A stretch of DNA of 64,000 nucleotides from assembly GCA_016938235.1 (NCBI GenBank), contig JAFGVA010000223.1, positions 406 to 64,405 on the forward strand, written 5' to 3'. Of this stretch, positions 4,734-62,313 are shown one piece after another (positions within the stretch are counted from its first letter, which is position 1; every line of letters begins with the position of its first letter). Under the pieces are notes generated by a model, which had not been told where the DNA came from, did no database searches, and saw only the letters and a program-made list of their open reading frames with translations. Source of the stretch: Bacteroidales bacterium. GTDB taxonomy: Bacteria; Bacteroidota; Bacteroidia; Bacteroidales; UBA10428. The translations under genes were made by a program, and so were the position numbers.

Positions 4734-4758
4734 ATTAAATGGTTCAAAAATAGTTGAA

Positions 4759-7700
4759 TTAAAAATTCAGGTTAGCACCAAAAAGAAGCATTTTGGTAAC
4801 CGGATAAAATGCAGCATCGATTCCCATTGAGGCGGGACTGAAATTCACATCGGCAACTTCGGGGTTGATTCCGGTATATGAAGTGAAAGTAAACAGGTTT
4901 CTACCGCCTACATATAATCGAAGGCGCTCAATATTAGCAATGCTGGTAACTTTATCAGGAATAGTATATCCCAAGGTGATATTTCTAACTCTCAAATAAG
5001 AAGCATCTTCAATGTAAAAATCGCTGGCCTCCGCATAATTTGCAACATTGTTTCGTGGAACTGTGGTGTTTCTGTTTTCAGCAACAACCACTACTTCCTG
5101 ACCTGTAGCGCGATCTATTTTTTTAATATCATTAACAACATAGCGGTTAGCAAAATCGGTACAATGGTTGGTGTTTTCCTGGTAATAGTATAAATATTGT
5201 TTAGAACCATTAAATAATTTATTGCCAATAGTACCGTTAAACTGTGCCGAGAAATCGAACCCTTTATATTCCAGGTTCAGAGAGAATCCGTAAATAATTT
5301 TAGGCAGCGGGCTTCCAAGGCTTGTTTTATCGTCATCTGTCAGCACCATGTTATCTCCATTTAAATCAACATAGCGAACATCGCCGGGTTGTGCTTTGGG
5401 CTGTGCATATATTGTTTCGCCATTTTCATCAATATAAAAAGGCTGATTTATAACAGTATAGTTGCCGCCACGATCTACAACATACTCTCCATTTGCATCG
5501 GTTAAGCAATCTTCAAGGGTAAAGATACCATCGGTTTCATAACCGAAAAATTCAGACACAGAACCACCTACTCTTGTCAGAGTAATGGGGGCAACAGAGT
5601 GAACGCCTCCTCTTAATAAAGAGTCGGTGGCCAGTTTTAGCACTTCATTTTTAAGCGTTGACAAGTTAGCATCGAAATTGTACTTTAAATCGCCAATCTG
5701 GTTTTTATAGCCCAGGGTAAACTCAAGCCCGGAGTTTTTAATACTTCCGATATTTACCTCCGGCGAAGTGTTATCAATATCAAAGGCAGCACCTAAAGAA
5801 TAAGAACCGGCAACATACGGCACTTCCCTGAACATAAGCATGTCTTCATTCACCTTGCTGTAGTATTCTATTGTCATGCTCAGTTTGTTTTGCATGAATG
5901 AAACATCAGCACCAATGTTTGTCATGTGAATTGTTTCCCAGTGAATTTCGGAGTTTGGTATTTGAACAGGAGCTGCACCCGAAGTTGAAACCATGTTGTC
6001 AAACGGATAGGCGAAAGTTTGAGGGAACCTTACAATACTTAAATATGGAGTATTTGAACGTGCATAGGTACCTACTTCACCGTATCCGAAACGGAGTTTA
6101 CCAAAGCTCAACAGGTTCTGGTTCTGCATGAAACTTTCGTTGGTGAATTTCCAACCGAAAGAGAATGATGGGAATACCCCAAATCTATAATCAGGGCCAA
6201 AAGAACTCCGACCGCTTCGTCTCACATTGGCAGTAAACAGGTAGGTTCCTTTATATGAATAGTTAATTCTTCCCAGGATAGCCAGAGCCCTGTTTTCCGA
6301 TGCACCTCCTTCAATTATCTGACTTATCAGGGTGTCGTTTACCGATTGCGAAAAATACCTGAGGTATTCAGGTGTGTTTGGTGCCAACTGGCGTTCTCCG
6401 CTGTAGTTGTAATCCCAGTTTCTTGAAGCTTCGGTACCTGCTAAAATAGAAATTTCATGATCCGAAAAATTTAAATTATAATTTAGCAGTTGCTGCACAT
6501 TATAATTAAGATCACGACCAATACCAATCGAAGATCTTACTTCGTCAATGCCTCTGTTGTCAAAAACATTGTTATAGTATACGTCTTCAAATTCTTTATT
6601 ATCCCAGAATCCCATTCCGCCAGCAAATCGGCTGGTGAATGACAAGCCTTTGAATAAATCGATTGTAACGGCAGTGTTCAGGTTGAAATTATTTCTTCTA
6701 GCAACGCGATCCACCATGTCGAGGCCTGCAATCGGAGAGGTTCCGCCAAATTCAGAATTACCCCAGATAGTGTCATTCATGTTTTCGTATCCGTCAACAT
6801 ATTCGGGAACATTGGGCTGCATTGTTAAACCATTTCTGATGGGTCCATCGTAATAAGCATTCCACACACTAAGCGGGAAACCAAAACGTTTGGAGTTAGT
6901 ATAATCAAGTTTGTTATCAACTGTAATCCGCTTGGTTAATTTATGTTCAGTGTTTAATCTGAAGGTAAATCTTTCATAATCGCTGTTTCTGATAATACCG
7001 GTTTGATTATTATAACTTGCACTTAACAGAAAAGATGAATTTTCATTACCTCCGGCAGTCGAGAAGTCGTAATTCTGAGTGATTCCTGTACCAAATAAAA
7101 TATCCTGCCAGTCATAGTTCGGAAAAGTATCGGGTCTTGAAGTGATGGCAGTGTCGCTGTTAGTTGCTTCTTCTACTGTAGAAAGCCATTGCTCTGAATT
7201 CATCAGATCAAGTCTGCTTACGGGCGATTCAAAACCATAGTAAAAGTTTAAGCTGGTTTTAATTTTTCCGCTGGAGCCATTCTTTGTAGTGACAATTATA
7301 ACACCGTTTCCACCGGAATCACCATAAATGGCAGCAGACGATGCATCTTTTAGTATCTCTATAGATTCGATATCGTTTGGCGAAATACCGTCAAGACTTC
7401 CGGGAACCCCGTCAACAATAATTAAAGGTTGAATACCATTAATAGAACTGATACCACGAATCTGAATTACTGCAGATGATCCGGGTACACCGGATTGGGG
7501 AATAACATTTACTCCGGCAGCTAAACCCTGAAGTGCCTGATCTACACCGGCAACAGGTATTTCGTTTAATTTTTCGCTACTTACCGATGCAATAGAACCG
7601 GTTACATCACTTTTTTTCTGTACTCCATAACCGGTAACAATTACTTCATCGAGACCGATGATATCTTCTGAAAGAACGATATCAATTTTTGTCTGGTCAC

Positions 7701-46700: not shown

Positions 46701-46761
46701 TACCATTTCACCCATTCAAGCATTCATTAATTCACTAATTCACTAATTCACTAATTCACCC
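46701..46761. repeat. 8-nt-period tandem array abutting the CDF transporter start codon
   Basis: Plus strand ..CATTCATTAATTCA CTAATTCA CTAATTCA CTAATTCA CCC-ATG. The minus-strand read is GTGAATTA x4 followed by ATGAATGC TTGAATGG GTGAAATGG. Confidence 0.9.
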
Positions 46762-47667
46762 ATGTCACACGCGGGATCAGTTAAATCAATCGTATATGCA
46801 TTACTGGCAAATTTCGGAATTGCCATTGCTAAATCCGGCGCAGCAATATACACAGGCTCCGGGGCCATGCTTGCCGAAGCAATTCATTCCTTTGCCGATT
46901 GTGGAAATCAGGGTTTATTATTTCTTGGTTTACGCAGAGCAAAAATTGGTCCTTCGAAAAATTACCCGCTTGGACACGGGAAAGCTATATTTTTTTGGTC
47001 GTTTGTAGTTGCACTTATACTTTTTAGTATGGGTGGCGTTTTCTCAATTTACGAGGGAATTCATAAACTACATGCTTATGAACCCATTAATTCTCCCCTT
47101 GTAGCTATTGTAGTACTTTTACTGGGAGTTATTATGGAAGGAGCATCGCTATTTGGTTGTATCAGGCAGATTAACAAAATAAAAGGAAATCAGAATTTGT
47201 GGCAATGGGCTAAAGACAGCCGGCAAAGTGAACTGATTGTTATTCTTGGTGAGGACTTGGCTGCAATCACCGGGCTAATTTTTGCTCTACTATCTATCAT
47301 ACTTGCCGTGGTTACAGGCAATATGGTTTTCGATGCGATTGGAAGTATTGGAATTGGAATATTATTAGTAATTGTCTCATTTTTTTTGGCAACCAAGATA
47401 AAAGGATTACTTATCGGCCAAAGTGTAGAGAAAGATGTTGCCGAAGATATTGAACATTTTATTGAAAAGCAGGAAAGTGTCAGGGAAGTTCTGAATCTTA
47501 TTACCTTGCAGTTAGGGGCTCAGGTAATGGTTGCTGTAAAAGCAAAAATGAATCCGACATCAACAGCCGGTGAAATGATAAACAACATCAATGTCTGCGA
47601 AGCCGCTTTAAAGAAGCATAACCCAAATATTCAATGGGTTTTTTTTGAACCGGATTTAAAAGATTAA
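46762..47667 (+). CDS. Cation diffusion facilitator family transporter
   Basis: 301 aa with 6 TM segments. HSFADCGNQ in TM2 and a C-terminal cytoplasmic domain. Confidence 0.8.
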   Translation: MSHAGSVKSIVYALLANFGIAIAKSGAAIYTGSGAMLAEAIHSFADCGNQGLLFLGLRRAKIGPSKNYPLGHGKAIFFWSFVVALILFSMGGVFSIYEGIHKLHAYEPINSPLVAIVVLLLGVIMEGASLFGCIRQINKIKGNQNLWQWAKDSRQSELIVILGEDLAAITGLIFALLSIILAVVTGNMVFDAIGSIGIGILLVIVSFFLATKIKGLLIGQSVEKDVAEDIEHFIEKQESVREVLNLITLQLGAQVMVAVKAKMNPTSTAGEMINNINVCEAALKKHNPNIQWVFFEPDLKD

Positions 47668-50180: not shown

Positions 50181-50540
50181 ATGAAAAACAAAATATCATC
50201 AGAATTGCTTAAAGGTTCTTTGAAACCAATTATTCTAAAACTGCTGAAAGAGCAGGGCAGGATGTATGGCTACGAAATAACTCAACAGGTTGAGGAACTG
50301 AGCAAGGGTAAAATAGTGCTTACCTACGGGGCTCTTTATCCCATATTACACAAACTCGAAAACGATGAAATTGTAATTACCGAACAGGAAATTGTAAACA
50401 ACCGAACACGTGTTTACTATAAACTTACTCCAAAAGGTTCTGAAAAGTCGGTTGAGAAAATCAGAGAGATGGAGGCTTTTTTACAAACCTTGGGAATATT
50501 GTTTAAACCCAGTCCAAATGTTGGTCTATGCAATACCTGA
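50181..50540 (+). CDS. PadR-family transcriptional regulator
   Basis: 119 aa. LKGSLKPIILKLLKEQGRMYGYEITQQV.. and GALYPILHKLE are winged-helix PadR signatures. Confidence 0.88.
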   Translation: MKNKISSELLKGSLKPIILKLLKEQGRMYGYEITQQVEELSKGKIVLTYGALYPILHKLENDEIVITEQEIVNNRTRVYYKLTPKGSEKSVEKIREMEAFLQTLGILFKPSPNVGLCNT

Positions 50541-51739
50541 CAAGTGAACAGATAGATGCAATTGATGCAGAACTGAAAAATGCTGAAATAAATTATTCGC
50601 ATTTACCCGAAGATTTATTGGATCATATCTGCTGCGATATTGAAAAATACCTGAACGATGGGCTCAATTTCAATGAGGCCTACCAATCGGTATTTGATAA
50701 GATTGGAATTAACGGATTAAAGGAAATTCAGGAGGCAACTATCTTTTATGTTAAACTAAATCTTATGAAAATGAAAAAATTGATGAATTTTATGGCTTTG
50801 ATCGGAGGCATTTCGGTTACTGCAGGAATGTTCTTTAAACTTATGCACTGGCCGGGTGGGGGGATTGTACTTACCTTTGGATTCTTATTTTTGTTCCTGG
50901 GTTTTTTCCCGGCTGCACTTATGAACCTTCGAAAAGAATTGGAGCAAAAATTCTTTTCAGCAGGTTTTTTAATCTATTTAGTAGGTTTCTTAACCTTTGT
51001 AATTACAGGGGCAGCAATGATCTTTAAAATGATGCATTGGCCTGGCGGTGGACTTCTTGTTTCAGCCAGCATGATCTTATTGTTTCTCATTTTTTTCCCG
51101 GTTTTGTTTTTTAAAATAGTCAGAACAGAGAAAAACAGGATCGTTAATCTCTCATTGGTTTTATTTGCCTTCCTTTTTGCTGGTTTTATTACCGTTTCTA
51201 ACCTGAATAGCGCACGCAACGTTTCAAACGTTTTCCAATATGAAGATCTGACAGCAGAATTAGCTTATTACAAAGAGGCAATGAAAACTCAAGCCAGCAG
51301 CACGGTATTCAGTGAAGCAGAGTACACTGCAAGTTTAAAACTTTTTAATACCTTGAATACAGACATAGAGGATCTCAAATCCCTGATTCTTAATGACAGG
51401 AAGGATATTTATGAACTAAACTTCAGGCTAAACCATTTCTCTTTATTAGAAGATGTATATGATTCACGCCTGATTGCTTTAAAAGAAGAAATTGAAGCAT
51501 ATAAGCAGCAAATGCTCAAACTTGCCGGGAATAGTAAAGATTTATCAATTTTGATAAATGCATTATTCAATACAGAAGATTACCAATTGGAATATTATCA
51601 CAGGCCATGGATAGAGAGAAAATTTGATAGGTCATACGTGGGAAAACTAACAAGTTTGCAGCAATTACAAAAGTATATTTACCAGACACAATATGAAGTT
51701 TTAAGGTACCAGGTACTTAATTCATCGACTCCTGAATAA
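50528..51739 (+). CDS. PadR-coupled membrane protein with a duplicated FK(L/M)MHWPGGG TM hairpin
   Basis: 403 aa with a 13-nt overlap with padR. Soluble N-domain, two homologous modules (GMFFKLMHWPGGGIVLTFGFLFLFLGFFP and AAMIFKMMHWPGGGLLVSASMILLFLIFFP), and a C-terminal ~190-aa helical domain. Confidence 0.6.
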   Translation: MQYLTSEQIDAIDAELKNAEINYSHLPEDLLDHICCDIEKYLNDGLNFNEAYQSVFDKIGINGLKEIQEATIFYVKLNLMKMKKLMNFMALIGGISVTAGMFFKLMHWPGGGIVLTFGFLFLFLGFFPAALMNLRKELEQKFFSAGFLIYLVGFLTFVITGAAMIFKMMHWPGGGLLVSASMILLFLIFFPVLFFKIVRTEKNRIVNLSLVLFAFLFAGFITVSNLNSARNVSNVFQYEDLTAELAYYKEAMKTQASSTVFSEAEYTASLKLFNTLNTDIEDLKSLILNDRKDIYELNFRLNHFSLLEDVYDSRLIALKEEIEAYKQQMLKLAGNSKDLSILINALFNTEDYQLEYYHRPWIERKFDRSYVGKLTSLQQLQKYIYQTQYEVLRYQVLNSSTPE

Positions 51740-51764
51740 CAATTCGTTATATTCAATTATGCAG

Positions 51765-51792
51765 GGCTGTCAATTGTTTGACAGCCTTTTTT
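51765..51792 (+). terminator. Rho-independent terminator
   Basis: GGCTGTCAA-TTGT-TTGACAGCC followed by TTTTTT. Confidence 0.8.
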
Positions 51793-51858
51793 ACTTTAAT
51801 ATTATAACAGGCATATAAAAAAAATACGATTTTTCTTGACAAAGCTTTTTGAATTATT

Positions 51859-51866
51859 TATATTTG
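51859..51866 (+). promoter_or_regulatory. Candidate -7 box for the TetR operon
   Basis: TATATTTG, directly abutting operator-like site 1. Confidence 0.45.
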
Positions 51867-51882
51867 AACAAACGTTCAGTCA
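51865..51882. promoter_or_regulatory. Operator-like site 1 (imperfect copy)
   Basis: TGAACAAACGTTCAGTCA shares AACGTTCAGTC with the perfect palindrome at 51927-51942. Confidence 0.5.
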
Positions 51883-51887
51883 AAAAC

Positions 51888-51910
51888 AAAGCGGCTAACC
51901 TCCGCTTTTT
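51888..51910 (+). promoter_or_regulatory. Small hairpin plus T-run in the TetR leader
   Basis: AAAGCGG-CTAACCT-CCGCTTT followed by TT, between the two operator-like sites. Confidence 0.45.
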
Positions 51911-51926
51911 AAAAGACCTATTCAAT

Positions 51927-51942
51927 GACTGAACGTTCAGTC
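51927..51942. promoter_or_regulatory. Operator-like site 2 (perfect 16-bp palindrome)
   Basis: GACTGAACGTTCAGTC is its own reverse complement. It lies 16 nt upstream of the likely TetR start at 51958. Confidence 0.6.
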
Positions 51943-51957
51943 TTAAAATTTATCACT

Positions 51958-52533
51958 ATGGCACCACGCACCGAACAACAATTTGAAATTATCAGGGAAG
52001 AAAGAAAAGAGCAAATTATGAAAGTTGCTCTGGAACTAATAGCACAGGATGGCTTTGCAAATGTATCAATTTCGAAGATTGCAGCAAAGGCAAAGATTTC
52101 CAAAGGACTAATGTATAACTACTTCGACAGTAAGGAGAAAATGATTACAGAGATCATGATTGGAGGTTTTGAGGAATTGGAACGAGTTTTTGACCCCAAT
52201 AAAGATGGCATTCTCACCGACGATGAATTGCATTTTTTAATCGAAGAAACCTTTCGCATACTACAGTCAAATATAAAATTCTGGAGGCTTTATTTCATGA
52301 TTATGTTTCAACCCGAAGTGTATAAACTGATTGAAAAGCAGCTTCAAAAAGCATTAAAACCTTTTATGAATATCACTTACAATTATTTTGTGAAACGAGG
52401 TTATGAAGATCCCGCAGCAGAAGTATCATTATTCGGTGCTATTCTCGATGGCGTGAGCCTGAACTTCGTAATGAATCCGCGGATTTTTCCACTCGAAGGA
52501 ATTAAATCTAAATTACATAGCATGTATAAATAA
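51958..52533 (+). CDS. TetR/AcrR-family transcriptional regulator
   Basis: The start MAPRTEQQFEIIREERKEQIMKVALELIAQDGF..VSISKIAAKAKISKGLMYNYF carries an HTH. The ORF-track start at 51925 would place the palindrome inside the coding sequence. Confidence 0.85.
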   Translation: MAPRTEQQFEIIREERKEQIMKVALELIAQDGFANVSISKIAAKAKISKGLMYNYFDSKEKMITEIMIGGFEELERVFDPNKDGILTDDELHFLIEETFRILQSNIKFWRLYFMIMFQPEVYKLIEKQLQKALKPFMNITYNYFVKRGYEDPAAEVSLFGAILDGVSLNFVMNPRIFPLEGIKSKLHSMYK

Positions 52534-52534
52534 T

Positions 52535-53008
52535 ATGGTTATGGGAACATTAGTAATAAACCGATTCGATAAGTCTTTTGGACCTGTGGGTTCATTTGCC
52601 GGCTTGTTCATTTTCCTGGCTGGCCTGATTCTCATTTTCTATAGCTACTCAGCAATAATTCTCATCTTGTTGGGAGCCTTTGTAGGATTTACTCATTCTT
52701 CAGCTTCTATCGATTTTGGTGATAGTAAAATACGATTGACAAACAACATTTGCGGAATTTTTAAATTTGGTAAATGGATACAGGTACATCCCGAAATGGT
52801 AATATCCATTAAATCAAACCGGCAAATTTACCGTAACTTCAGTCGCAGCAACCGTGTGTTGGATATAAAAACCCATAAATACCAGGTACTGCTTTGCGAT
52901 GAAAAACTAAATCCACTAATACCACTTAAGTATATTAAGGATCTTGATGATGGTAAAAAGATAGCTAAAGAATATGCTACCCGACTAAACATAAAAACGA
53001 ATTATTAA
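52535..53008 (+). CDS. Hypothetical small membrane protein
   Basis: 157 aa with two TM segments near the N-terminus. Starts 1 nt after the TetR stop. Confidence 0.5.
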   Translation: MVMGTLVINRFDKSFGPVGSFAGLFIFLAGLILIFYSYSAIILILLGAFVGFTHSSASIDFGDSKIRLTNNICGIFKFGKWIQVHPEMVISIKSNRQIYRNFSRSNRVLDIKTHKYQVLLCDEKLNPLIPLKYIKDLDDGKKIAKEYATRLNIKTNY

Positions 53009-53037
53009 AACATTCAATAACATTAAAGATTATTCAC

Positions 53038-53799
53038 ATGAAGACAAAAGTTAAATTAATTATTGCATCAGCCCTTTTATCCGGAGTCTTTCAGATTGCT
53101 GTAAGAGCCCAGGATGCTACCGAGCTTATCAGAAAAGCAGACGCCAAAATGCGTGGAGAGAAATCGAGTTACAGCGTAATGAGCATGACCATTGTAAGGC
53201 CTACCTGGAACCGCACCATCAGCTTTAAAAGCTGGACAAAAGGAACCGAAAACTCTTTGGTGTACATTACTGCTCCTGCAAAAGAAAAGGGACTGGTTTT
53301 CCTTAAGCTTGACCGTGATATGTGGAGCTGGAATCCACAAATTAACCGTATGATTAAGCTGCCAACTTCTATGCTTTCGCAAGGTTGGATGGGTTCCGAT
53401 TTCACAAACGACGATTTGCTTAACCAAAGTTCGATAGTGGTTGATTATACCCATAAAATTCTTGCTGAAGAGACAGTTTCTGGCGAGGATTGCTACAAAA
53501 TTGAACTTATGCCAAAACCCGATGCACCGGTCGTATGGGGTAAAATAATTATGTGGGTCTCAAAAGCCCATATTACTGGAGTAAAAACTGAGTATTATGA
53601 CGAAGACGGGTACCTGGTAAAATCGGAGATTGGCATGGACTTCAAAGACATGAGTGGTCGTTATATCCCTACAAAATTTGAACTTATTCCTGCCGATGAA
53701 GAAGACAACAAAACCATTGTGGTAATGGAAAATATACAGTTCAATATTGCTATTGAAGATTCATTTTTCTCTCAACAGAATATGAAGAGGGTGAGATAA
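53038..53799 (+). CDS. LolA-like outer-membrane lipoprotein-sorting family protein
   Basis: 253 aa with signal peptide. MWSWNPQINRMIKLPTSMLSQGWMGSDFTNDDL is typical of the LolA-like family found next to FtsX-type permeases. Confidence 0.7.
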   Translation: MKTKVKLIIASALLSGVFQIAVRAQDATELIRKADAKMRGEKSSYSVMSMTIVRPTWNRTISFKSWTKGTENSLVYITAPAKEKGLVFLKLDRDMWSWNPQINRMIKLPTSMLSQGWMGSDFTNDDLLNQSSIVVDYTHKILAEETVSGEDCYKIELMPKPDAPVVWGKIIMWVSKAHITGVKTEYYDEDGYLVKSEIGMDFKDMSGRYIPTKFELIPADEEDNKTIVVMENIQFNIAIEDSFFSQQNMKRVR

Positions 53800-53832
53800 T
53801 TAATAATGTTGAATGAAAAATGTATAATGATT
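53798..53832 (+). repeat. Left heptamer array of the four-helix-bundle cassette
   Basis: AATTAAT AATGTTG AATGAAA AATGTAT AATGATT. Begins inside the stop codon of the upstream gene and ends 15 nt before the ATG. Confidence 0.85.
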
Positions 53833-53847
53833 TAACACCTAGATTAA

Positions 53848-54207
53848 ATGAAAACCGACAATGTCATTTTGGATAAAACTTATGCTTTTGCACTCAAAAT
53901 TGTAAAACTGTATTTACAACTTAAAAAAGATAATGAGTTTATTCTTTCCAGACAATTAGTGAAAAGTTCTACTTCAATAGGTGCTAATAGTGAGGAGGGT
54001 GCTGCTGCGCAATCTAAAAATGATTTTATTTCAAAATTTTCAATTGCTTTAAAAGAAGCAAGAGAATCAAGGTATTGGTTAAGATTACTTAGAGATAGTG
54101 AGTTGATTGACATTAACTACGCTGATATATTAATTGAAGAATGTAATGAGATAATCAGAATAATAACTTCAATTATTAAAACTGCTCGAAATAATACTAA
54201 AAGCTGA
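53848..54207 (+). CDS. Four-helix-bundle protein (23S rRNA intervening-sequence protein family; Avd-like)
   Basis: 119 aa. Core SIGANSEEGAAAQSKNDFISKFSIALKEARESRYWLRLL matches the family signature (..SI..N..EG......DF..K..IA.KEA.E..YWL.LL). Confidence 0.85.
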   Translation: MKTDNVILDKTYAFALKIVKLYLQLKKDNEFILSRQLVKSSTSIGANSEEGAAAQSKNDFISKFSIALKEARESRYWLRLLRDSELIDINYADILIEECNEIIRIITSIIKTARNNTKS

Positions 54208-54208
54208 A

Positions 54209-54243
54209 ACACATTATACATTATTCATTTTCAATTATTCATT
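54209..54243 (-). repeat. Right heptamer array of the four-helix-bundle cassette (inverted)
   Basis: The minus-strand read is AATGAAT AATTGAA AATGAAT AATGTAT AATGTGT. Begins 1 nt after the stop codon. Confidence 0.85.
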
Positions 54244-54258
54244 TTTAAACTGATTATT

Positions 54259-55677
54259 ATGAAATTATACAAAATAGCCTGGCGAAACCTTTGGAGGAAC
54301 AGAAAACGAACTGCTATTACTTCTGCTTCAATACTTTTTGCCGTTTTCTTTGCCGTTGTTATGAGGTCGTTAGAGCTCGGATTCTACGACCACATGATTA
54401 AAAATGCGATTGAATCCTATTCCGGATTTTTGCAAATCCAACATGTTGATTACCAAACCGATCCCTCTTTGGAAAATACCATTGAGCTCGATGAAGGATT
54501 CATTGCTCAGCTAGAAAATGCCGAAGGTGTAAAAGCTGTAGTACCAAGAGTGCAGACTTTTGCTTTAGCCTCCAGCGGAGAACAAACAAAAGGAGCTCTA
54601 ATTGTGGGGATAGATCCGGTTAAAGAGAAAAAATTGTCCAATCCAGAAATACGGTTAGTTAGACACCAATTTACTAAAGAGAATATTGAACGGCTTAATG
54701 AGAATTCCGGAATACCCGAATCTGTAAAAGAGAAACTAAACGGTCTGTTGTATAAATCTTATACAAACACAGGTACAATTGCTATGGACCTTGACCTTGA
54801 TGAGGAAGCTGAATCATTCTTACTCAGTATTCTCGGACAAGAAACAGCTTTTCCCGGAGAATACCTTCAAGCTAACGACGATGGAGTTTTGGTTTCAGAA
54901 CGTTTATCGAAGTACCTTAAACTTAAGGTTGGAGATACTCTTATTCTTTACGGACAGGGCTACCAGGGAGCAACCGCAGCAGATCTTTTCCCGGTGCGTG
55001 GCATTGTTAGTATTCCAAATCCGGAACTTGACAATAAACTGGTATATGCAAGCCTTGAGAAGGCTCAGTATTTTTCAAACCTTGGAAACCGTATTTCAAA
55101 TCTGGCAATCAACCTCGATGATAACAGCGATAAGAATTTAAAGTATATGGAAAAGAAACTTTCAGACATGTTAAATTCTGAAACTGTTACAGTTGAGAAC
55201 TGGAAAGTATTCAACAAAGTGCTCTGGCAGCAGATTGAGAGCGATAATAACAGCGGAATAATATTCCTTGGGCTGCTTTACTTCATTATTTTCTTCGGAA
55301 TATTTGGAACAGTGCTTATGATGATACATGAGCGTTATCGTGAATTCGGTGTAATGGTCTCCATTGGAATGCAAAAAACACGTCTTTCGGTTATTATGAT
55401 ATATGAGATGATATTGATGGGAATTCTGGGCGTTCTTTCCGGCATTATTTTAAGTCTTCCTTTAATTCTGACCATGCATTATAATCCGGTGCATCTGACA
55501 GGAGATATGGCACAAATGATGGAGGACATGGGATTCGAAGCTGTTATGCCCCTGGCAAGTCCCGGGATGTATATGGTTTGGCAGGCTGTAATTGTTGCAA
55601 TTATGGTGGCGCTTTCAAGTATATACCCCATACGCAAAATATTCGCTCTTAAAGAGATAGATGCACTCAGAGCTTAA
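54259..55677 (+). CDS. FtsX/MacB-type ABC transporter permease
   Basis: 472 aa. N-terminal AWRNLWRNRKRT, a large extracytoplasmic domain between TM1 and TM2, and a C-terminal FtsX 3-TM bundle. Confidence 0.85.
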   Translation: MKLYKIAWRNLWRNRKRTAITSASILFAVFFAVVMRSLELGFYDHMIKNAIESYSGFLQIQHVDYQTDPSLENTIELDEGFIAQLENAEGVKAVVPRVQTFALASSGEQTKGALIVGIDPVKEKKLSNPEIRLVRHQFTKENIERLNENSGIPESVKEKLNGLLYKSYTNTGTIAMDLDLDEEAESFLLSILGQETAFPGEYLQANDDGVLVSERLSKYLKLKVGDTLILYGQGYQGATAADLFPVRGIVSIPNPELDNKLVYASLEKAQYFSNLGNRISNLAINLDDNSDKNLKYMEKKLSDMLNSETVTVENWKVFNKVLWQQIESDNNSGIIFLGLLYFIIFFGIFGTVLMMIHERYREFGVMVSIGMQKTRLSVIMIYEMILMGILGVLSGIILSLPLILTMHYNPVHLTGDMAQMMEDMGFEAVMPLASPGMYMVWQAVIVAIMVALSSIYPIRKIFALKEIDALRA

Positions 55678-55701
55678 TTACTAACGAGAAAATCAATACA
55701 A

Positions 55702-57123
55702 ATGATACTATCAATTGGTTGGAAAAATGTTTGGCGAAATAAAACCCGGAGTATGGTTGTTATTGTCGCCGTTATGCTGGGAATTTTCGGAGGAGTAATG
55801 GCTTCCGGAATAATGAAAGGCTGGATAGCACAGCGCATTCATGCCAGTATTTACAACGAAATATCTCACGTTCAGATTCACAATCCTGAGTTCATGTTGA
55901 ATGAGGATATGAATCTGACTATTGAAAATGCTGAACAAATACTGAATGTTCTGGATACAATACCAGAGGTGGTAGCATATAGCCCAAGAGTTAAGCTCTT
56001 TGCCATGGTAAAAAGCGACTGGTCGACCTCGGGCTTATATGTTAAAGGTGTTGACAGGGATAAAGAAATTGAAGTTTCTGAAATCTATAAACATCTTTTG
56101 GAGGGTGATTTTCTGGAAGGAAAACACAGAATTCCTTCCATTGTAATAGGAAGTGATGCAGCGAAGGCACTCAAGCTGTTAAATTACCAGGTTACCCCGG
56201 AAAAAATCGATTCATTGAATGTTGAAGAGTACCCTGTTGAGATAATATCGAAATTGGGGGATATTGGTGACAAACGATTCAGAAAAGAAAAAGATTTCAG
56301 GGAAGCTTTAACCGAAAATCTGACTAAACACGAATACAAAGAATACGGAGACAAACTTGTTGAATATTTCTCATTTTACAGGTTGGGAGCAAAACTTGAG
56401 CTTACTCTTCAGGATACAAGCGGACAGATAATCAATCCGGTCTTTAAAATAAGGGGAATATACAAAACCAGCAATACCATGTTTGACGGACTAACCGCTT
56501 TTGTTGATCGCCAAAAACTTAATACCTATACAAAGCTTGGAGAAAATGATATTCATGAAATTGCAATAATCTCTACCGGGAACGATGAGGGAAAAGAATT
56601 AGGCATAACACTGGAAGAATATTTTGCAGGTAGCAGTGTGATGGGCTGGGATAAAATTTCTCCCGAAATAGCTATGTATACCCAGTTCACCAGTCTTATG
56701 GGGATAATTTTTGTAGGTATTATTCTGTTTGCACTGGCATTCGGTATTATTAATACCATGTTGATGTCTGTTTTGGAAAGAGTAAAGGAATTAGGTATGT
56801 TAATGGCAATTGGCATGAACAGGAAAAGAGTGTTTTACATGATAATGGCCGAATCAATTTTTCTTACGATAACCGGTGCAATTGCAGGAATGATCTTCAG
56901 TGGGATCATTCTTGAGATTACCGGCAGAACGGGCATTAATTTCAATATGTATGCCGAAGGCTTTGAAGCACTTGGATATTCATCTGTTGTTTATCCAACT
57001 GTCTCGTGGTTCGATTATATTTCTATAATAATTCTGGTAATAATTACAGGTATTATTTCATCTATCTGGCCGGCCAGAAAGGCATTGAAGCTTAATCCTG
57101 TGGAAGCACTTAGGACGGATTAA
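55702..57123 (+). CDS. FtsX/MacB-type ABC transporter permease (paralog)
   Basis: 473 aa. GWKNVWRNKTRS and the same architecture as the preceding gene. Confidence 0.85.
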   Translation: MILSIGWKNVWRNKTRSMVVIVAVMLGIFGGVMASGIMKGWIAQRIHASIYNEISHVQIHNPEFMLNEDMNLTIENAEQILNVLDTIPEVVAYSPRVKLFAMVKSDWSTSGLYVKGVDRDKEIEVSEIYKHLLEGDFLEGKHRIPSIVIGSDAAKALKLLNYQVTPEKIDSLNVEEYPVEIISKLGDIGDKRFRKEKDFREALTENLTKHEYKEYGDKLVEYFSFYRLGAKLELTLQDTSGQIINPVFKIRGIYKTSNTMFDGLTAFVDRQKLNTYTKLGENDIHEIAIISTGNDEGKELGITLEEYFAGSSVMGWDKISPEIAMYTQFTSLMGIIFVGIILFALAFGIINTMLMSVLERVKELGMLMAIGMNRKRVFYMIMAESIFLTITGAIAGMIFSGIILEITGRTGINFNMYAEGFEALGYSSVVYPTVSWFDYISIIILVIITGIISSIWPARKALKLNPVEALRTD

Positions 57124-57217
57124 TGATTAATGTATAATGAAGAATGTATAATGAAGAATGTATAATGAAGAATGTATAATGAAGAATGTATAATGAAGAA
57201 TGCATAATTTATAATTG
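57122..57217 (+). repeat. Tandem array of the 14-mer AATGTATAATGAAG (5 perfect copies plus degenerate ends)
   Basis: AATGATT, then 57129-57198 as 5 x AATGTATAATGAAG, then AATGCATAATTTAT AATTG. Starts inside the permease stop codon. Confidence 0.95.
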
Positions 57218-57315
57218 TTGAACTAGAAACATTGAACTAGGAACATTGAACTAGAAACATTGAACTAGAAACATTGAACTAGAAACATTGAACTAGAAAC
57301 ATTGAACTAGAAACT
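57218..57315 (+). repeat. Tandem array of the 14-mer TTGAACTAGAAACA (7 copies)
   Basis: Seven contiguous units. Unit 2 has A to G (TTGAACTAGGAACA) and unit 7 ends ..AAACT. The array ends 15 nt before the ATPase ATG. Confidence 0.95.
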
Positions 57316-57330
57316 TTAAACTTAACAATC

Positions 57331-58014
57331 ATGAAAGTAATAGAACTAAAAAAAGTAGAAAAAATATATAACGACTCAGAAGTAAAAGTACATGCGGTGC
57401 GTGGTATTGATCTTGAGTTCGAAGAAGGCGAATTTGCAGCCATCGTTGGCCCCTCAGGTTCAGGAAAAACAACTCTGTTGAATATGCTTGGCGGGTTAGA
57501 TAAACCTACAGTTGGCGATATCTACATTGGAGGCACACACATTAACGATCTGTCAGGTTCGAAACTTATAGATTTTCGTTTGTTCAACATCGGCTTCGTA
57601 TTTCAGTCCTATAACCTCATACCGGTTTTAACTGCGAAAGAAAACGTTGAGTTTATCATGCAGATGCAGGGTATTTCGCAGGAGGAACGTTACCAGCGAA
57701 CCAAAGCTTTATTGGAGGAAGTAGGACTGGGAGACAGACTCGATAGTCGGCCCAAGCAACTTTCAGGCGGTCAGCAACAGCGAGTGGCAGTGGCAAGAGC
57801 ATTAGCATCTAAGCCAAAATTTGTTCTTGCCGACGAACCAACAGCAAACCTCGATTCAAAATCGACAGAGAATCTGCTGGAAATAATGGAAAAACTGAAT
57901 AAGGAAGAAAACATAACTTTCATCTTTTCTACACACGATCAGCGGGTTGTTAAAAAAGCACGCAGGGTTATTACCGTTGAAGATGGTAAGGTGTTGAGCG
58001 ATGAGCGAAAGTAG
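57331..58014 (+). CDS. ABC transporter ATP-binding protein (MacB/LolD-like)
   Basis: 227 aa. Walker A GPSGSGKTT, signature LSGGQQQRVAVARAL, Walker B FVLADEPT. Confidence 0.93.
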   Translation: MKVIELKKVEKIYNDSEVKVHAVRGIDLEFEEGEFAAIVGPSGSGKTTLLNMLGGLDKPTVGDIYIGGTHINDLSGSKLIDFRLFNIGFVFQSYNLIPVLTAKENVEFIMQMQGISQEERYQRTKALLEEVGLGDRLDSRPKQLSGGQQQRVAVARALASKPKFVLADEPTANLDSKSTENLLEIMEKLNKEENITFIFSTHDQRVVKKARRVITVEDGKVLSDERK

Positions 58015-58038
58015 GTTTGACTATCCTACTTTCAATCA

Positions 58039-58065
58039 GCGTCATTCCGGGCTTGACCCGGAATC
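58039..58065. repeat. CGTCAT-hairpin element (third variant)
   Basis: GCGTCATTCCGGGCTTGACCCGGAATC has the same layout (CGTCAT + 6-bp stem + ATC) as the copies at 204 and 2898. A possible distal end CGTAATGAGG lies at about 58126-58135. Confidence 0.6.
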
Positions 58066-58146
58066 TCCTGAATTTATTTGAATAAAAAGCTGAACTTAAC
58101 ATTTAAAAGATTACTTCGATGTGCTCGTAATGAGGTTTTTTATTTT

Positions 58147-58180
58147 CGTCATTGCGAAATTGAGGAACGAAATTGAAGCA
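58147..58180. repeat. CGTCAT-type element (fourth, divergent)
   Basis: CGTCATTGCGAAATTGAGGAACGAAATTGAAGCA shares the CGTCAT head and has an internal GAAATTGA duplication. Confidence 0.45.
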
Positions 58181-58206
58181 TTCTGTTTCTTAAAAATAAG
58201 GAAATC

Positions 58207-59394
58207 ATGAAAAAAACATTTATAATATTATTTTTAGGACTAAGTCTCTCAGCCCACTCCCAATCCAAATTCGATTACTACGGGTACCTTTCAGGCATGC
58301 CTCAATACATGCATATCGATAGTATAAATTATTACCAGGGTATTCTGCATAACCGGATGAACTTTTTCTATTATCCAAATAATAATTTTAGTTTTTCTGT
58401 ACAGTTGCGAAATCAACTTTTGTATGGTGATCTAGTAGAAATGTCGGCTTATGAAGATGGGTTTGTAAGCGAAAGCTATTTTCTGCCATTAACTTTTCAG
58501 CAGACATTTAACGACAAAGGCTTCCTGAGTTTATCGGCCGACAGGTTTTATGGACAATACACCAAGGGTAATTTCGACATAAAAGTGGGAAGACAGAGGA
58601 TAAACTGGGGGCAGACCTTTGCCTGGAATCCAAACGATATTTTTAATACCTATAATTTCTTCGATTTCGACTATTTAGAGAGACCGGGAGCCGATGCTAT
58701 CCGCATTCAGTATTTTACTGGCGCAACTTCACAGCTCGATTTCGCTGCTAAAATCGATAGTGCCAACAATATAACTGCTGCCGCATTATACAGATTTAAT
58801 AAATGGAGAACCGATTTTCAGGTAATTGGCGGATATTACAGTCAGTCTTATATCGATACTGTTACTTTTCATACCGATACGGAATCGGATTATGTTTTGG
58901 GACTGAGCTTTACCACCGATTTAAAAGGTGTGAGTTTAAGAACAGAAAGTTCATATATGATTCCAACAGACGATTCACCCTTTCAGAAGGATTTGTTGCT
59001 TATAAGTGTGGGGCTTGATTATACCCTTCCGGTTAATCTTTCATTTGTTACAGAATTTTTCTACACAAACCAAGTACAGCCAATGACCTCGGGTCTGTTA
59101 TCGATGTATTCAAGGCCTATGACTGTTAAAAGCATGGTTTTTACACACTATAATTTGTTTGCACAGGCGAGTTATCCTGTTACACCATTAATTAATGCTT
59201 CATTCGGAGGAATGGTTTTCACTGATGAAAACCTCGATGGGTTTTATGTTGGTCCATCTATAGATTATTCTTTGAACGATAATCTTGTGCTTGCTGTTTA
59301 CGGGCAAATTTTTGGATTTCGGACTGTATATCTGGGTGAAGTAACCGAAACACTCATTTCTATGGGATTTCTTAGGCTTAAATGGAGTTTTTAA
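58207..59394 (+). CDS. Predicted outer-membrane beta-barrel protein (hypothetical)
   Basis: 395 aa with signal peptide, alternating aromatic/polar beta-strand pattern, and a C-terminal ..LRLKWSF ending in Phe. Confidence 0.6.
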   Translation: MKKTFIILFLGLSLSAHSQSKFDYYGYLSGMPQYMHIDSINYYQGILHNRMNFFYYPNNNFSFSVQLRNQLLYGDLVEMSAYEDGFVSESYFLPLTFQQTFNDKGFLSLSADRFYGQYTKGNFDIKVGRQRINWGQTFAWNPNDIFNTYNFFDFDYLERPGADAIRIQYFTGATSQLDFAAKIDSANNITAAALYRFNKWRTDFQVIGGYYSQSYIDTVTFHTDTESDYVLGLSFTTDLKGVSLRTESSYMIPTDDSPFQKDLLLISVGLDYTLPVNLSFVTEFFYTNQVQPMTSGLLSMYSRPMTVKSMVFTHYNLFAQASYPVTPLINASFGGMVFTDENLDGFYVGPSIDYSLNDNLVLAVYGQIFGFRTVYLGEVTETLISMGFLRLKWSF

Positions 59395-59400
59395 TTAAAA

Positions 59401-59709
59401 CTGAACAAGGAAGTCATTCAGACCCGGCTCGATAATGAGGAGTTTGAAGCATCATATCAAAAGGGCTATAATTTGTTCAGGCAAAAAAAATATACCGAAG
59501 CAATTCCGTTTTTTGAAGATGCTGTAAGAATTAAACCAGAACACTACCCGGCAAATCTGGGACTTGTTTCATGTTATGTGAACAAATGCGCCGGCAACAA
59601 TGATTATTGCACAGAAGCAGTTAATCATCTTAATTATATCGTTCAAAAGTACGGGATGAATTATAAATTAACCGAACTTAAAATTCTTTTAGATTCAAAA
59701 TTGGAATAA
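59401..59709 (+). pseudogene. TPR-motif ORF without an ATG start (fragment or non-canonical start)
   Basis: The open frame after the barrel-gene TAA reads ..EASYQKGYNLFRQKKYTEAIPFFEDAVRIKPEHYPANLGLVSCY.. The TPR-like helix pair begins upstream of the track's TTG start at 59473. No ATG is present; the only candidate start is CTG at 59401. Confidence 0.35.
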
Positions 59710-59982
59710 TAATTCATTTCAAATTCCGAATAGTAAGCAAATAAAACACATAGCTTTCAAAATGAAAGATATATATGAATATAAATTGAATTAGCGTTTG
59801 ATTAACCCCGTTTTTAATTCGAATACACCTAATTTAAAATAAAACTAAATAACAAACTCACCTCAATTTAAAACGCACGTAATCAGCAAAATATAAAAAC
59901 AGAATTATTTACGTTAATTTTGGTTCAGCTATGAATTTCCAAGTGCTTAACCTTACCTTAAAGCCTGTCTCAGCAAAATGAT

Positions 59983-59990
59983 TATATTTG
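59983..59990 (+). promoter_or_regulatory. Candidate -7 box for hppA
   Basis: TATATTTG, 74 nt upstream of the ATG. Confidence 0.35.
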
Positions 59991-60063
59991 TTATCTCCTT
60001 GAATAAATATAAATAAATAATCGGGGAAATTGATGGATCAATTAATAACAAAAACCTTGTATT

Positions 60064-62313
60064 ATGGATAAAATATTTTCTGCAGTACCATTTTTGGCAA
60101 TGATAGGGTCATTACTTGCCCTTGTTTTTGCTTTCTTCTTTTATAGGAATATGATGAAAAATTCTGAAGGTACAGACCGGATGAAAGAAATTGCCCAGTA
60201 TGTTCGTGAGGGCGCAATGGCATATCTCGCCAGACAATATAGTGTTGTTGGAAAAGTTTTCATTGTATTGGTAATTTTACTTGCAATTTTAGCCTACATG
60301 GGAATACAAAACCCATTTGTACCGATTGCTTTCCTAACCGGAGGTTTCTTTTCCGGACTTTGCGGTTACCTTGGAATGAAAACAGCGACCAATGCTTCAG
60401 CTCGTACAGCACACGGTGCATCAAAATCCTTAAATAAAGGATTACAGATTGCTTTTCGTAGTGGTGCTGTAATGGGACTTGTTGTTGTTGGTTTTGGTTT
60501 GCTGGATATCTCATTGTGGTATTTATTACTCGACAGAGTTATTTTTACCCCTGATCATATGGCAACTGGAGTTAAATTTCTGGGCCTTCATTTTGTAAAT
60601 GCTGGTATAGGTGAAACCGAAAAATATATCGAGATAACTGCTACTATGCTTACATTTGGTATGGGTGCTTCTACGCAGGCACTTTTTGCCCGCGTTGGTG
60701 GTGGTATTTATACAAAAGCAGCCGATGTTGGAGCTGACCTTGTTGGTAAAGTGGAAGCTGGTATTCCTGAGGATGATCCTCGTAATCCTGCTACTATTGC
60801 TGATAATGTTGGCGATAATGTAGGGGATGTTGCCGGTATGGGCGCTGATTTATACGAATCCTATGCAGGTTCAATTTTAGCAACTGCCGCTCTTGGTGCT
60901 GCTTTAGCCGTTTCAAATATTCAGGAAACAATAAAAGCCGTTACTGCCCCGATGTTGGTTGCAGCAATCGGTATAATACTTTCCATTATAGGTATTTTTA
61001 TGGTTCGTACAAAAGAATCGGCTACTCAGAAAAATCTTCTTCGTGCATTATTTATAGGAACTTTTGGGAGTTCAATTTTAATACTGATTGCTGTGGCCGG
61101 TATGGCTGCCCTTGATATTATTACCTGGGGAGTTTTTGGATCGGTTGTAGCAGGTTTACTTGCCGGTGTTATTATCGGACAAGGAACAGAATATTATACT
61201 TCGGATGAATATGCTCCTACAAAAGGTATTGCCTCTCAGGCGCAACAAGGTCCGGCAACAACCATTATTGATGGTATTGCGGTTGGGATGTACTCTACCT
61301 GGATTCCGGTTGTTACTATTGTTGCTGGAATTATTGCTGCGTATGGATTTGCCGGTGGATTCCAGAATTTTTCACAAGGAGTTTACGGTATTGGCTTTGC
61401 AGCGGTTGGTATGCTTTCCACTCTAGGTATAACATTGGCTACCGATGCTTTTGGCCCTATTGCGGATAATGCTGGTGGAAATGCTGAAATGAGCGAATTA
61501 CCTAAAGAGGTACGTGAAAGAACAGATGCATTGGATATGCTTGGAAATACAACTGCAGCTACCGGAAAAGGATTTGCAATTGGCTCTGCTGCACTTACAG
61601 CAATGGCACTTTTAGCCGCCTATATGGAAGAAATAAAGTTATGGCTAAGCAAATATCCTTTGAAAGGAGATGCATTTCTTGCAGCCACAGGATTAGATAG
61701 CTTTGCAAATGCTGACATAACTGATTTTGTTTCTTATTATAACCTTTCTCTTTTTAATCCAATGGTTTTGGGAGGGTTATTTATTGGAGCTATGATGGCC
61801 TTTGTTTTTTGCGCAATGACTATGAAAGCTGTTGGCCGTGCTGCTGGTGCAATGGTTGATGAGGTTCGTCGTCAGTTTAAAGAAATTCCCGGAATTATGG
61901 AAGGTAAAGCTACCCCTGAATATGCCAAATGTGTTGCAATATCAACAAAAGGTGCTCAACGTGAAATGTTAGTACCATCGCTTTTGGCAATTGCTGTACC
62001 GGTAGTTGTGGGTATTGTTCTTGGTGTAGCTGGTGTAGTTGGTTTGCTTGCCGGAGGTCTTACTGCAGGGTTCACACTTGCCAGTATGTTAAACAACTCA
62101 GGTGGTGCATGGGATAATGCTAAAAAATATATTGAAAAAGGAAATTTTGGCGGAAAAGGAAGCGATGCTCACAAAGCTGGTGTTGTTGGTGATACTGTTG
62201 GTGATCCATTTAAAGATACTTCCGGACCATCATTAAACATCCTTATTAAGCTTATGACAATGGTTTCTGTTGTAATGGCAGGTTTAACTGTTGGATTCAG
62301 TATTTTCGGATAA
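60064..62313 (+). CDS. hppA: Membrane-integral ion-translocating pyrophosphatase (K+-dependent subtype signature)
   Basis: 749 aa. [20 protein letters not shown] and DNVGDNVGD motifs. [10 protein letters not shown] has Ala rather than Lys at the position that distinguishes K+-dependent from K+-independent enzymes. Confidence 0.95.

Follow-up and report, generated by a model that had tools for sequence, protein, structure and literature searches.

What are the two 14-bp tandem arrays that occupy the spacer between the second permease gene and the ATPase gene of an ABC transporter operon in Bacteroidales bacterium contig JAFGVA010000223.1, and how did they come to be there? We analysed a 64,000-nt stretch of this contig (hereafter the window, to which all unattributed coordinates refer), in which the gene of the FtsX/MacB-type permease 2 (55702-57123, plus strand; gene call and Pfam FtsX, 5e-17) forms the upstream cistron and that of the ABC transporter ATPase (57331-58014, plus strand; Pfam ABC_tran, 3.1e-35) the downstream one. 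We favour the reading that both arrays, named here A and B, are slippage-generated minisatellites of paired heptamers in a passively transcribed and unstructured spacer. They probably belong to a known class of repeats similar to the short tandemly repeated repetitive (STRR) sequences and long simple sequence repeats (LSSR), with array A drawn from the word family that also makes up the arms around a nearby gene of the PF05635 (23S_rRNA_IVP, hereafter IVP) family.

The stop codon of permease 2 (57121-57123) and the ATPase ATG (57331) were separated by exactly 207 nt, nearly all of it filled by repeats. Tandem Repeats Finder (TRF) reported array A at 57121-57208 (period 14, 6.3 copies, 95% matches, score 155) and array B at 57218-57322 (period 14, 7.5 copies, 95% matches, score 189), confirming the gap and both arrays of an earlier note on this DNA. 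Array A, delimited by sequence and TRF at 57118-57215 (plus strand), reads as two GATTAAT heptamers, five GTATAAT GAAGAAT pairs, GCATAAT and TTATAAT; in this G-first register all the heptamers end in AAT. Its core consists of five perfect AATGTATAATGAAG units (AATGTAT AATGAAG; 57129-57198) with decayed units on both sides, and its first heptamer spans the last codon of the permease (GAT) and its TAA stop. Array B, delimited in the same way at 57218-57329 (plus strand), comprises (TTGAACT AGAAACA)x7 and a degenerate eighth unit, TTAAACTTAACAAT, which reaches the ATPase ATG. Its seven TTGAACTAGAAACA units lie at 57218-57315: five are perfect, unit 2 carries an A-to-G change and unit 7 ends in T instead of A. 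The earlier note had counted a single variant among the seven copies; the change in unit 2 stands and the count does not. That note also placed B immediately after A, and the two are indeed near each other, with 19 nt of decayed A units (AATGCAT AATTTAT AATTG; 57199-57217) between them. Finally, its description of each 14-mer as two heptamers fits array A, where the sub-period is clear, better than array B, where 3 of 7 positions are common to both heptamers.

Exact 14-nt periodicity persisted for as long as 60 nt, whereas none of 200 block shuffles had a run of more than 12 nt, and both 14-mers were far commoner than in dinucleotide shuffles. CRISPR arrays have repeats of at least 23 nt with unique spacers between them; the contiguous 14-mers, without any spacers, rule out such an array.

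Head-to-tail units of a multiple of 7 nt, high identity between the units and a non-coding intergenic position place the arrays with the intergenic heptanucleotide repeats, which have been described in Beggiatoaceae, Cyanobacteria and five Bacteroidetes (MacGregor 2015, PMC4679880). In Gramella and Aequorivita several heptamer arrays occur in one spacer, and the corresponding spacers of close relatives are shorter and repeat-free (PMC4679880). According to the account of Mrazek et al. 2007 given in PMC4679880, no unit length is commoner among long simple repeats than the heptamer, and polymerase slippage is the probable origin. The window arrays share with these repeats their position, often next to a stop or start codon, the presence of multiple arrays per spacer, the shorter repeat-free spacers of relatives, the Bacteroidetes carriers and the lack of a known function; this match with MacGregor's description (PMC4679880) assigns them to an already known kind of repeat. 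They differ in the unit (TAACTGA there, AATGTAT/AATGAAG and TTGAACT/AGAAACA here), in the period of 14 with alternating heptamers, in the location inside an operon between the cistrons of one transporter, and in that the words of array A match the arms of PF05635 genes, a link not mentioned in PMC4679880.

Taken alone, the arrays are therefore a further instance of a long-known and unexplained repeat class. In the 64-74 kb of this genome that we examined, arrays with differing units were also present at 1-80, at 46707-46763 and in the IVP arms, and those at 1-80 indicate that heptamer arrays form elsewhere in the same genome. Many arrays per genome, a non-coding tandem heptamer structure and no established function are likewise features of the STRR sequences that Mazel et al. 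reportedly described in 1990 from heterocystous cyanobacteria, with units such as CCCCAGT. A strict STRR assignment was rejected, as the nearest homologues bear Bacteroidales or Bacteroidota names and the AT-rich units here are not those of STRR.

The origin of the arrays was traced by comparison with five related operons, four of them (L004, L005, L144 and L145) with 66-70% identity to permease 2 and one (L138) with 41%. No database protein was more than about 70% identical to permease 2, save in a second assembly of the same organism. The spacers between permease 2 and ATPase measured 95 nt in L004, 84 nt in L005, 42 nt in L144, 38 nt in L145 and 53 nt in L138, and TRF found no tandem repeats in these five. 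Repeat-free spacers of 38-95 nt in all the relatives indicate that the arrays are derived, lineage-specific expansions. The recent expansion by slippage that had been proposed for this locus is thus supported by the near-identical units, the degenerate edges and the repeat-free spacers of the related operons.

The unit of array B also resembled the native leader of L144 at an equal distance from the ATG (AACTAACGAAATTG versus AACTAGAAACATTG, 10 of 14 positions), which suggests that the array was amplified in place, and the L145 spacer opened with TAAtatgattaat, resembling TAAtgattaat of the window. From their sequences, both arrays look as though they had been seeded from native sequence at opposite ends of the old spacer; this seeding we infer, because the sequences are AT-rich. 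Slipped-strand mispairing would then have enlarged both arrays in place, array B from the native ATPase leader and array A from TAATGATTAATG at the permease stop. The mRNA of the operon would carry the arrays as a mainly tolerated spacer of variable length; above all, the slippage reading predicts that copy number is heterogeneous.

A tolerated spacer is consistent with what we found in the predicted RNA, which folded no better than shuffled sequences (z = -0.6). We found no sigma-70-like promoter and no intrinsic-terminator-like site within the spacer, no Rfam match to it, and no Bacteroidetes-type TAnnTTTG motif on either of its strands on inspection by eye; explanations by a terminator, a promoter or an Rfam element were dropped on these grounds. 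The sense strand is A-rich, stop codons close all the sense frames, and array A is without any C. There are 12 ATGs in array A, of which ten have A at -3, and none in array B. By enumeration and frame check, a chain of mini-ORFs (open reading frames, ORFs) joined by UAAUG stop/start overlaps (MINV, four MKNV and MKNA; 57123-57207, plus strand) opens at the permease stop. Since TAATG lies within the 14-nt unit the chain arises automatically, so we make no functional claim for it.

Bacteroidetes initiate translation without Shine-Dalgarno (SD) pairing; mRNA structure and an A at -3 tune the process, and few AUGs occur close to their start codons (PMC6847099). With SD-less initiation, the unstructured and AUG-free array B is plausible as the leader of the ATPase, and it would be an acceptable one for independent initiation in Bacteroidia, whose SD-less starts use unstructured leaders. 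Array A is plausible as a field of decoy starts, judging from its ATGs, and would at most divert ribosomes to mini-ORFs of 4 and 11 codons. A change of copy number had also been proposed to alter the spacing or coupling between the permease and ATPase cistrons. This idea proved weakly founded: the spacers of the relatives already separate the two cistrons (38-95 nt), with stop and start never overlapping, which leaves no tight translational coupling to disturb.

Some observations weigh against local slippage as the whole explanation. The likeness between array B and the L144 leader (10 of 14) concerns AT-rich sequence of low complexity and lacks statistical rigour. Apart from the arms of the IVP cassette, array A was the one AATG-phased array of the 64 kb; it shares its operon with the cassette and pairs with the 3' arm of the latter, which hints at a specific relation between the two. 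The remaining points came from repeat searches. A degenerate 31-mer scan of one genome per species matched at least 120 stretches, nearly all of which were (AATGAAC/T)n, in Bacteroidota, Cyanobacteria, Chloroflexota, Ignavibacteria, Planctomycetota and some Firmicutes. Among the matches listed, these arrays were often back-to-back with other heptamer arrays, neither array A nor array B was present in exact form, and 96 of 110 AATGAAC-type arrays had no inverted partner within 900 nt. Sense and antisense solo AATGAAC arrays in the spacers of co-directional genes stood at 30:16 in the same matches, with a median start of the sense-oriented arrays 4 nt past the upstream stop (crude ORF calls); this orientation bias may hint that transcripts are under selection. 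Exact copies of the array A 25-mer were recovered in 9 metagenome and 3 viral stretches from unrelated contexts, including one independent case directly 5' of an IVP gene (L131/L134, one sequence in two stretches) and three cases followed by an inverted copy. Such a recurring vocabulary exceeds what independent local slippage alone predicts. The array B 24-mer gave zero matches in the JGI metagenome contigs or the viral contigs, and the idea of array B as a dispersed family was abandoned with those empty searches.

An alternative that we regard as possible and still unlikely links array A to a PF05635 hairpin cassette system, of which it would be a third arm, a relic or a landing pad. The array could be the remnant of a former insertion at this spacer, a copy of the neighbouring 5' arm or a target for insertion; it could also serve in the transcript as an alternative partner of the 3' arm, and the loop so formed would hold both permease genes in place of the IVP gene. 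The cassette of the window (53798-54243), 2.9 kb upstream of array A, comprises a 5' arm (AATGTTG AATGAAA AATGTAT AATG; 53798-53829, plus strand), predicted by RNA folding to pair with the 3' arm, a four-helix-bundle gene (PF05635, 23S_rRNA_IVP, Avd-like; 53848-54207, plus strand; Pfam 1.6e-25) and a CATT-type 3' arm (54212-54243, plus strand), identified by inverted-repeat search and duplex energies. Within the 64 kb of the window, three phased AATGNNN words (AATGNNNAATGNNNAATG) were confined to array A and the arms on either side of the IVP gene, with 13 matches against 0.04 expected, and the words that array A had been said to share with the flanks of the four-helix-bundle gene are therefore real. 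The best inverted repeats of the 3.7-kb region join the IVP 3' arm to array A, with 84% complementarity in four registers of 32 nt each and 94% in a stretch of 18 nt; between the 3' arm and its own 5' arm, complementarity was 81%. The predicted duplex energies were -23.2 kcal/mol for array A with the 3' arm and -22.1 kcal/mol for the 5' arm with the 3' arm, compared to about -12 ± 3 kcal/mol in shuffles.

Inverted heptamer arms bracketed 15 of the 16 PF05635 genes examined, mostly as (AATGNNN)n upstream and (NNNCATT)n downstream. These included all ten genes that had not been selected by their repeats (the window, L005, two in L138, L140, L141, L142, L143, L147 and L148), and the remaining bracketed loci were L087, L096, L100, L104 and L105. 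The bracketed genes came from Bacteroidota, a Firmicute, putative sulfate reducers (in an apr-qmo operon) and viral contigs; the viral-contig sample held two PF05635 loci, both with inverted arms. The cassettes spanned 8200-8750 in L005, 6809-7340 and 10904-11400 in L138, 2925-3394 in L140 and around 2950-3460 in L141, L142 and L143. In all eight cases with called neighbours, the cassette was located between co-directional operon genes (LolA-like/FtsX, ATPase/next gene, flgK/flgL, aprA/qmoA and RND pump/OEP). The related transporter operons of L005 and L138 carried it in different spacers, and the LolA-like/FtsX1 spacer without a cassette measured 10-156 nt in L004, L005, L144 and L145. Between the window and L138, the IVP protein was 69% identical, the LolA-like protein 56% and FtsX2 41%; this higher identity of IVP than of its neighbours would fit mobility and strong constraint alike. 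In L140 (Thermohalobacter berrensis) the 5'-arm array recurs one gene downstream, and L143 has an empty inverted-array hairpin (4680-4795) one gene 3' of its occupied IVP cassette.

Similar empty hairpins were seen in metagenome stretches L132, L133 and L135, in which an AATG-type array and its inverted copy follow each other within tens of nt and enclose no gene. IVP genes, too, usually start in an AATGAAN context (A-ATG-AAA).

Open reading frames of PF05635 are found in the 23S rRNA intervening sequences of Leptospira and Coxiella. The window cassette resembles them as an ORF in a stem-loop with arms that pair in the RNA fold, and array A shares the words of those arms; it differs in being located in an mRNA operon spacer, not in rRNA, and arrays A and B enclose no ORF. 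The Avd proteins of diversity-generating retroelements (DGRs) offer another comparison for PF05635 (PMC10053308), and the ten annotated ORFs at 50528-62313, the sole stretch screened, included neither a reverse transcriptase nor any further DGR component. We found no description of PF05635 genes with flanking repeats in the literature searched, which does not prove that the link is undescribed.

How far, then, does array A itself resemble a PF05635 arm? The phased AATGNNN words are present in array A and absent from array B. An inverted partner about 0.4 kb away with a PF05635 ORF in between was found for neither, as the two arrays lie 9 nt apart in the TRF coordinates with no ORF between them. 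The suggestion that the spacer is the footprint or landing site of the cassette consequently holds in part: array A agrees with it in its words, its 84% complementarity to the 3' arm and its analogues in L140 and L143; array B belongs to another word family, and the spacer contains neither a gene remnant nor an inverted partner. Several findings speak for this alternative: the brackets around PF05635 genes (15 of 16, including all ten that were not repeat-selected), a 3' arm that complements array A more closely than its own 5' arm, array A as the only other AATG-phased array of the window, the extra arrays or empty hairpins 1-2 spacers from the cassette in L140 and L143, the exact 25-mer directly 5' of the IVP gene in L131/L134 and the differing cassette positions in the operons of L005 and L138. 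Against it, array B is not the complement of array A; a hairpin between them, as in an empty cassette, was rejected with only about 5-7 bp paired per 14 nt and the fold z of -0.6. AATG-type arrays elsewhere are mostly solo, without a nearby IVP gene, so that the proximity of array A to the cassette may be coincidental, and the empty orthologous spacers of relatives hold no pre-existing arrays, which argues against a conserved landing pad. Moreover, a 2.9-kb loop closed by an AU-rich duplex of about 30 bp would be an unlikely rival to local pairing.

A broader version of this alternative, to which we give little credence, would unite AATGNNN arrays and PF05635 genes of many phyla in an intervening-sequence-like hairpin cassette system that colonises the spacers of co-directional operon genes, with the copy number of the arrays balancing alternative pairings of the 3' arm. 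Solo arrays such as array A would then be orphan arms or landing pads. The 3' arm would have two possible partners, array A and its own 5' arm. Its choice between them would shift the double-stranded target of RNase III and thereby set which part of the transcript, the IVP mRNA or the permease segment, is excised.

We consider it similarly doubtful that the spacer is a hypermutable rheostat, or contingency locus, in which the number of units tunes the translation of the ATPase relative to the permeases, with array A providing decoy starts and mini-ORFs joined by UAAUG, and with array B as a leader that lacks AUG and can change in length. Phase-variable simple sequence repeat (SSR) contingency loci have their repeats in the promoter, leader or ORF of the regulated gene; the arrays make up the whole leader of the ATPase cistron, and their near-perfect units are prone to slippage. 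The 12 ATGs of array A (ten with A at -3), the unstructured RNA, the SD-less lineage and the mini-ORFs that begin at the permease stop would all suit such a device, as would the usual depletion of AUGs near Bacteroidetes starts (PMC6847099). The closest known case is that of hmw1A/hmw2A in H. influenzae, which encode a surface adhesin and in which the (ATCTTTC)n repeat is the left arm of a long 5' untranslated region (5'-UTR) hairpin cut by RNase III (PMC12721329, PMC8262952), with hmw1A expression inversely proportional to the number of heptamer repeats (PMC12721329). Both loci have a transcribed heptamer array in the leader of a gene, whose copy number could in principle scale expression. 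However, the hmw mechanism requires the long 5'-UTR hairpin and RNase III, and no such hairpin is predicted here; an ABC exporter ATPase is an atypical target of phase variation, and the mini-ORF chain, an automatic product of TAATG, stops 124 nt short of the ATPase ATG.

Still less probable, in our view, is a platform for a sequence-specific protein, either iteron-like on DNA or bound as single-stranded RNA by a heptamer-binding protein (cold-shock, S1-type or IVP). The regular 7/14-nt phasing, a vocabulary common to distant taxa and the presence in the same operon of an IVP gene with matching arm words speak for a binder, and post-transcriptional regulators that bind heptamers have been proposed, with one heptamer per CspB protein (PMC4679880). 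The units of A and B are unrelated and the other arrays of the window differ again, which makes a single binder unlikely; array B was found nowhere else in the collections searched, and the arrays are not conserved in the five related operons. Plasmid and phage iterons have units of about 17-22 bp and an adjacent replication initiator gene or origin. The iteron-like platform of the earlier note shares with them only short direct repeats in non-coding DNA and did not hold up: the 14-bp units form two unrelated arrays that are absent from relatives, in a transporter operon among chromosomal housekeeping genes, with no replication or initiator gene, no origin context and a monotonic GC skew without a turning point. 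Replication-origin iterons were discarded for the same reasons.

An origin of the arrays, or of their copy numbers, in errors of short-read metagenome assembly is scarcely credible: the source is a metagenome-assembled genome, IVP-bearing contigs are typically very short, such arrays disrupt assembly, and the Logan unitig of SRR13394436, the only independent assembly, breaks 35 nt into array A (57158), but this unitig matches the entry into array A base for base, the arrays, of 88 and 105 nt and perfect over about 70 nt at most, are shorter than a typical read and should be resolvable, their degenerate edge units and internal variants are those of natural arrays, and equivalent arrays are present in isolate genomes of Salinimicrobium, Cesiribacter and Fibrella.

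The slippage-generated minisatellites have some practical weight, because arrays of this kind break assemblies, inflate intergenic distances and may seed spurious start codons and gene calls. By fragmenting short-read assemblies systematically, they would leave IVP genes and their context under-represented in metagenome data. The more useful outcome concerns the PF05635 genes that are found inside operons between inverted arrays of the array A word family. If that link holds genome-wide, the unexplained heptamer repeats would gain their first concrete genetic partner, and for the four-helix-bundle genes that abound as stand-alone genes there would be a way of spreading and of being expressed that can be tested.

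As side observations on assembly, Logan unitigs terminated within heptamer arrays at the end of L003 (equal to window position 57158) and at the start of L139, and contigs with IVP homologues were mostly only 0.6-4 kb long.

The operon that carries the arrays begins with a TetR regulator gene (start 51925), followed by an unknown gene (start 52535) and the LolA-like gene (start 53038), which lies just before the IVP gene. FtsX permease 1 (start 54259) is downstream of the IVP cassette, and a DUF1302-like gene (start 58207) follows the ATPase.

Two other sites in the window also carry TRF-detected arrays on the plus strand. At 1-80, (GAAGGGT/GAAAAGT)n is followed back-to-back by (GAATTGA GAATTGT)n, and part of the pattern recurs at 117-140. 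The first of these arrays is already under way at position 1 of the window, and the contig extends about 3.2 kb further. At 46707-46763, an octamer array (ATTCANNN; ATTCACTA x4.8) abuts the start of a cation-efflux gene, in the order ATTCACCC, ATTCAAGC, ATTCATTA, three ATTCACTA and ATTCACCC, and ends exactly at the cation-efflux ATG.

Back-to-back arrays were also seen in other genomes. In a Prevotellaceae metagenome-assembled genome (L018, 181-330), the C-terminal tail of an FtsX-like protein (...IESLRYE*), identified by eye from the translation, is followed within a few nt of its gene by (AATGAAC/T)8 and then (AACGTGA)n, a parallel to the window locus in an unrelated genome. In IMG/VR, three stretches (L126, 9280-9520; L127, 6600-6840; L128, 9650-9900) carry long arrays of an 11-nt unit (AGCAAACCAGG and variants) that pass directly into AATGTAT/AATGAAG/AATGAAA heptamers, possibly in an origin-like region of a mobile element.

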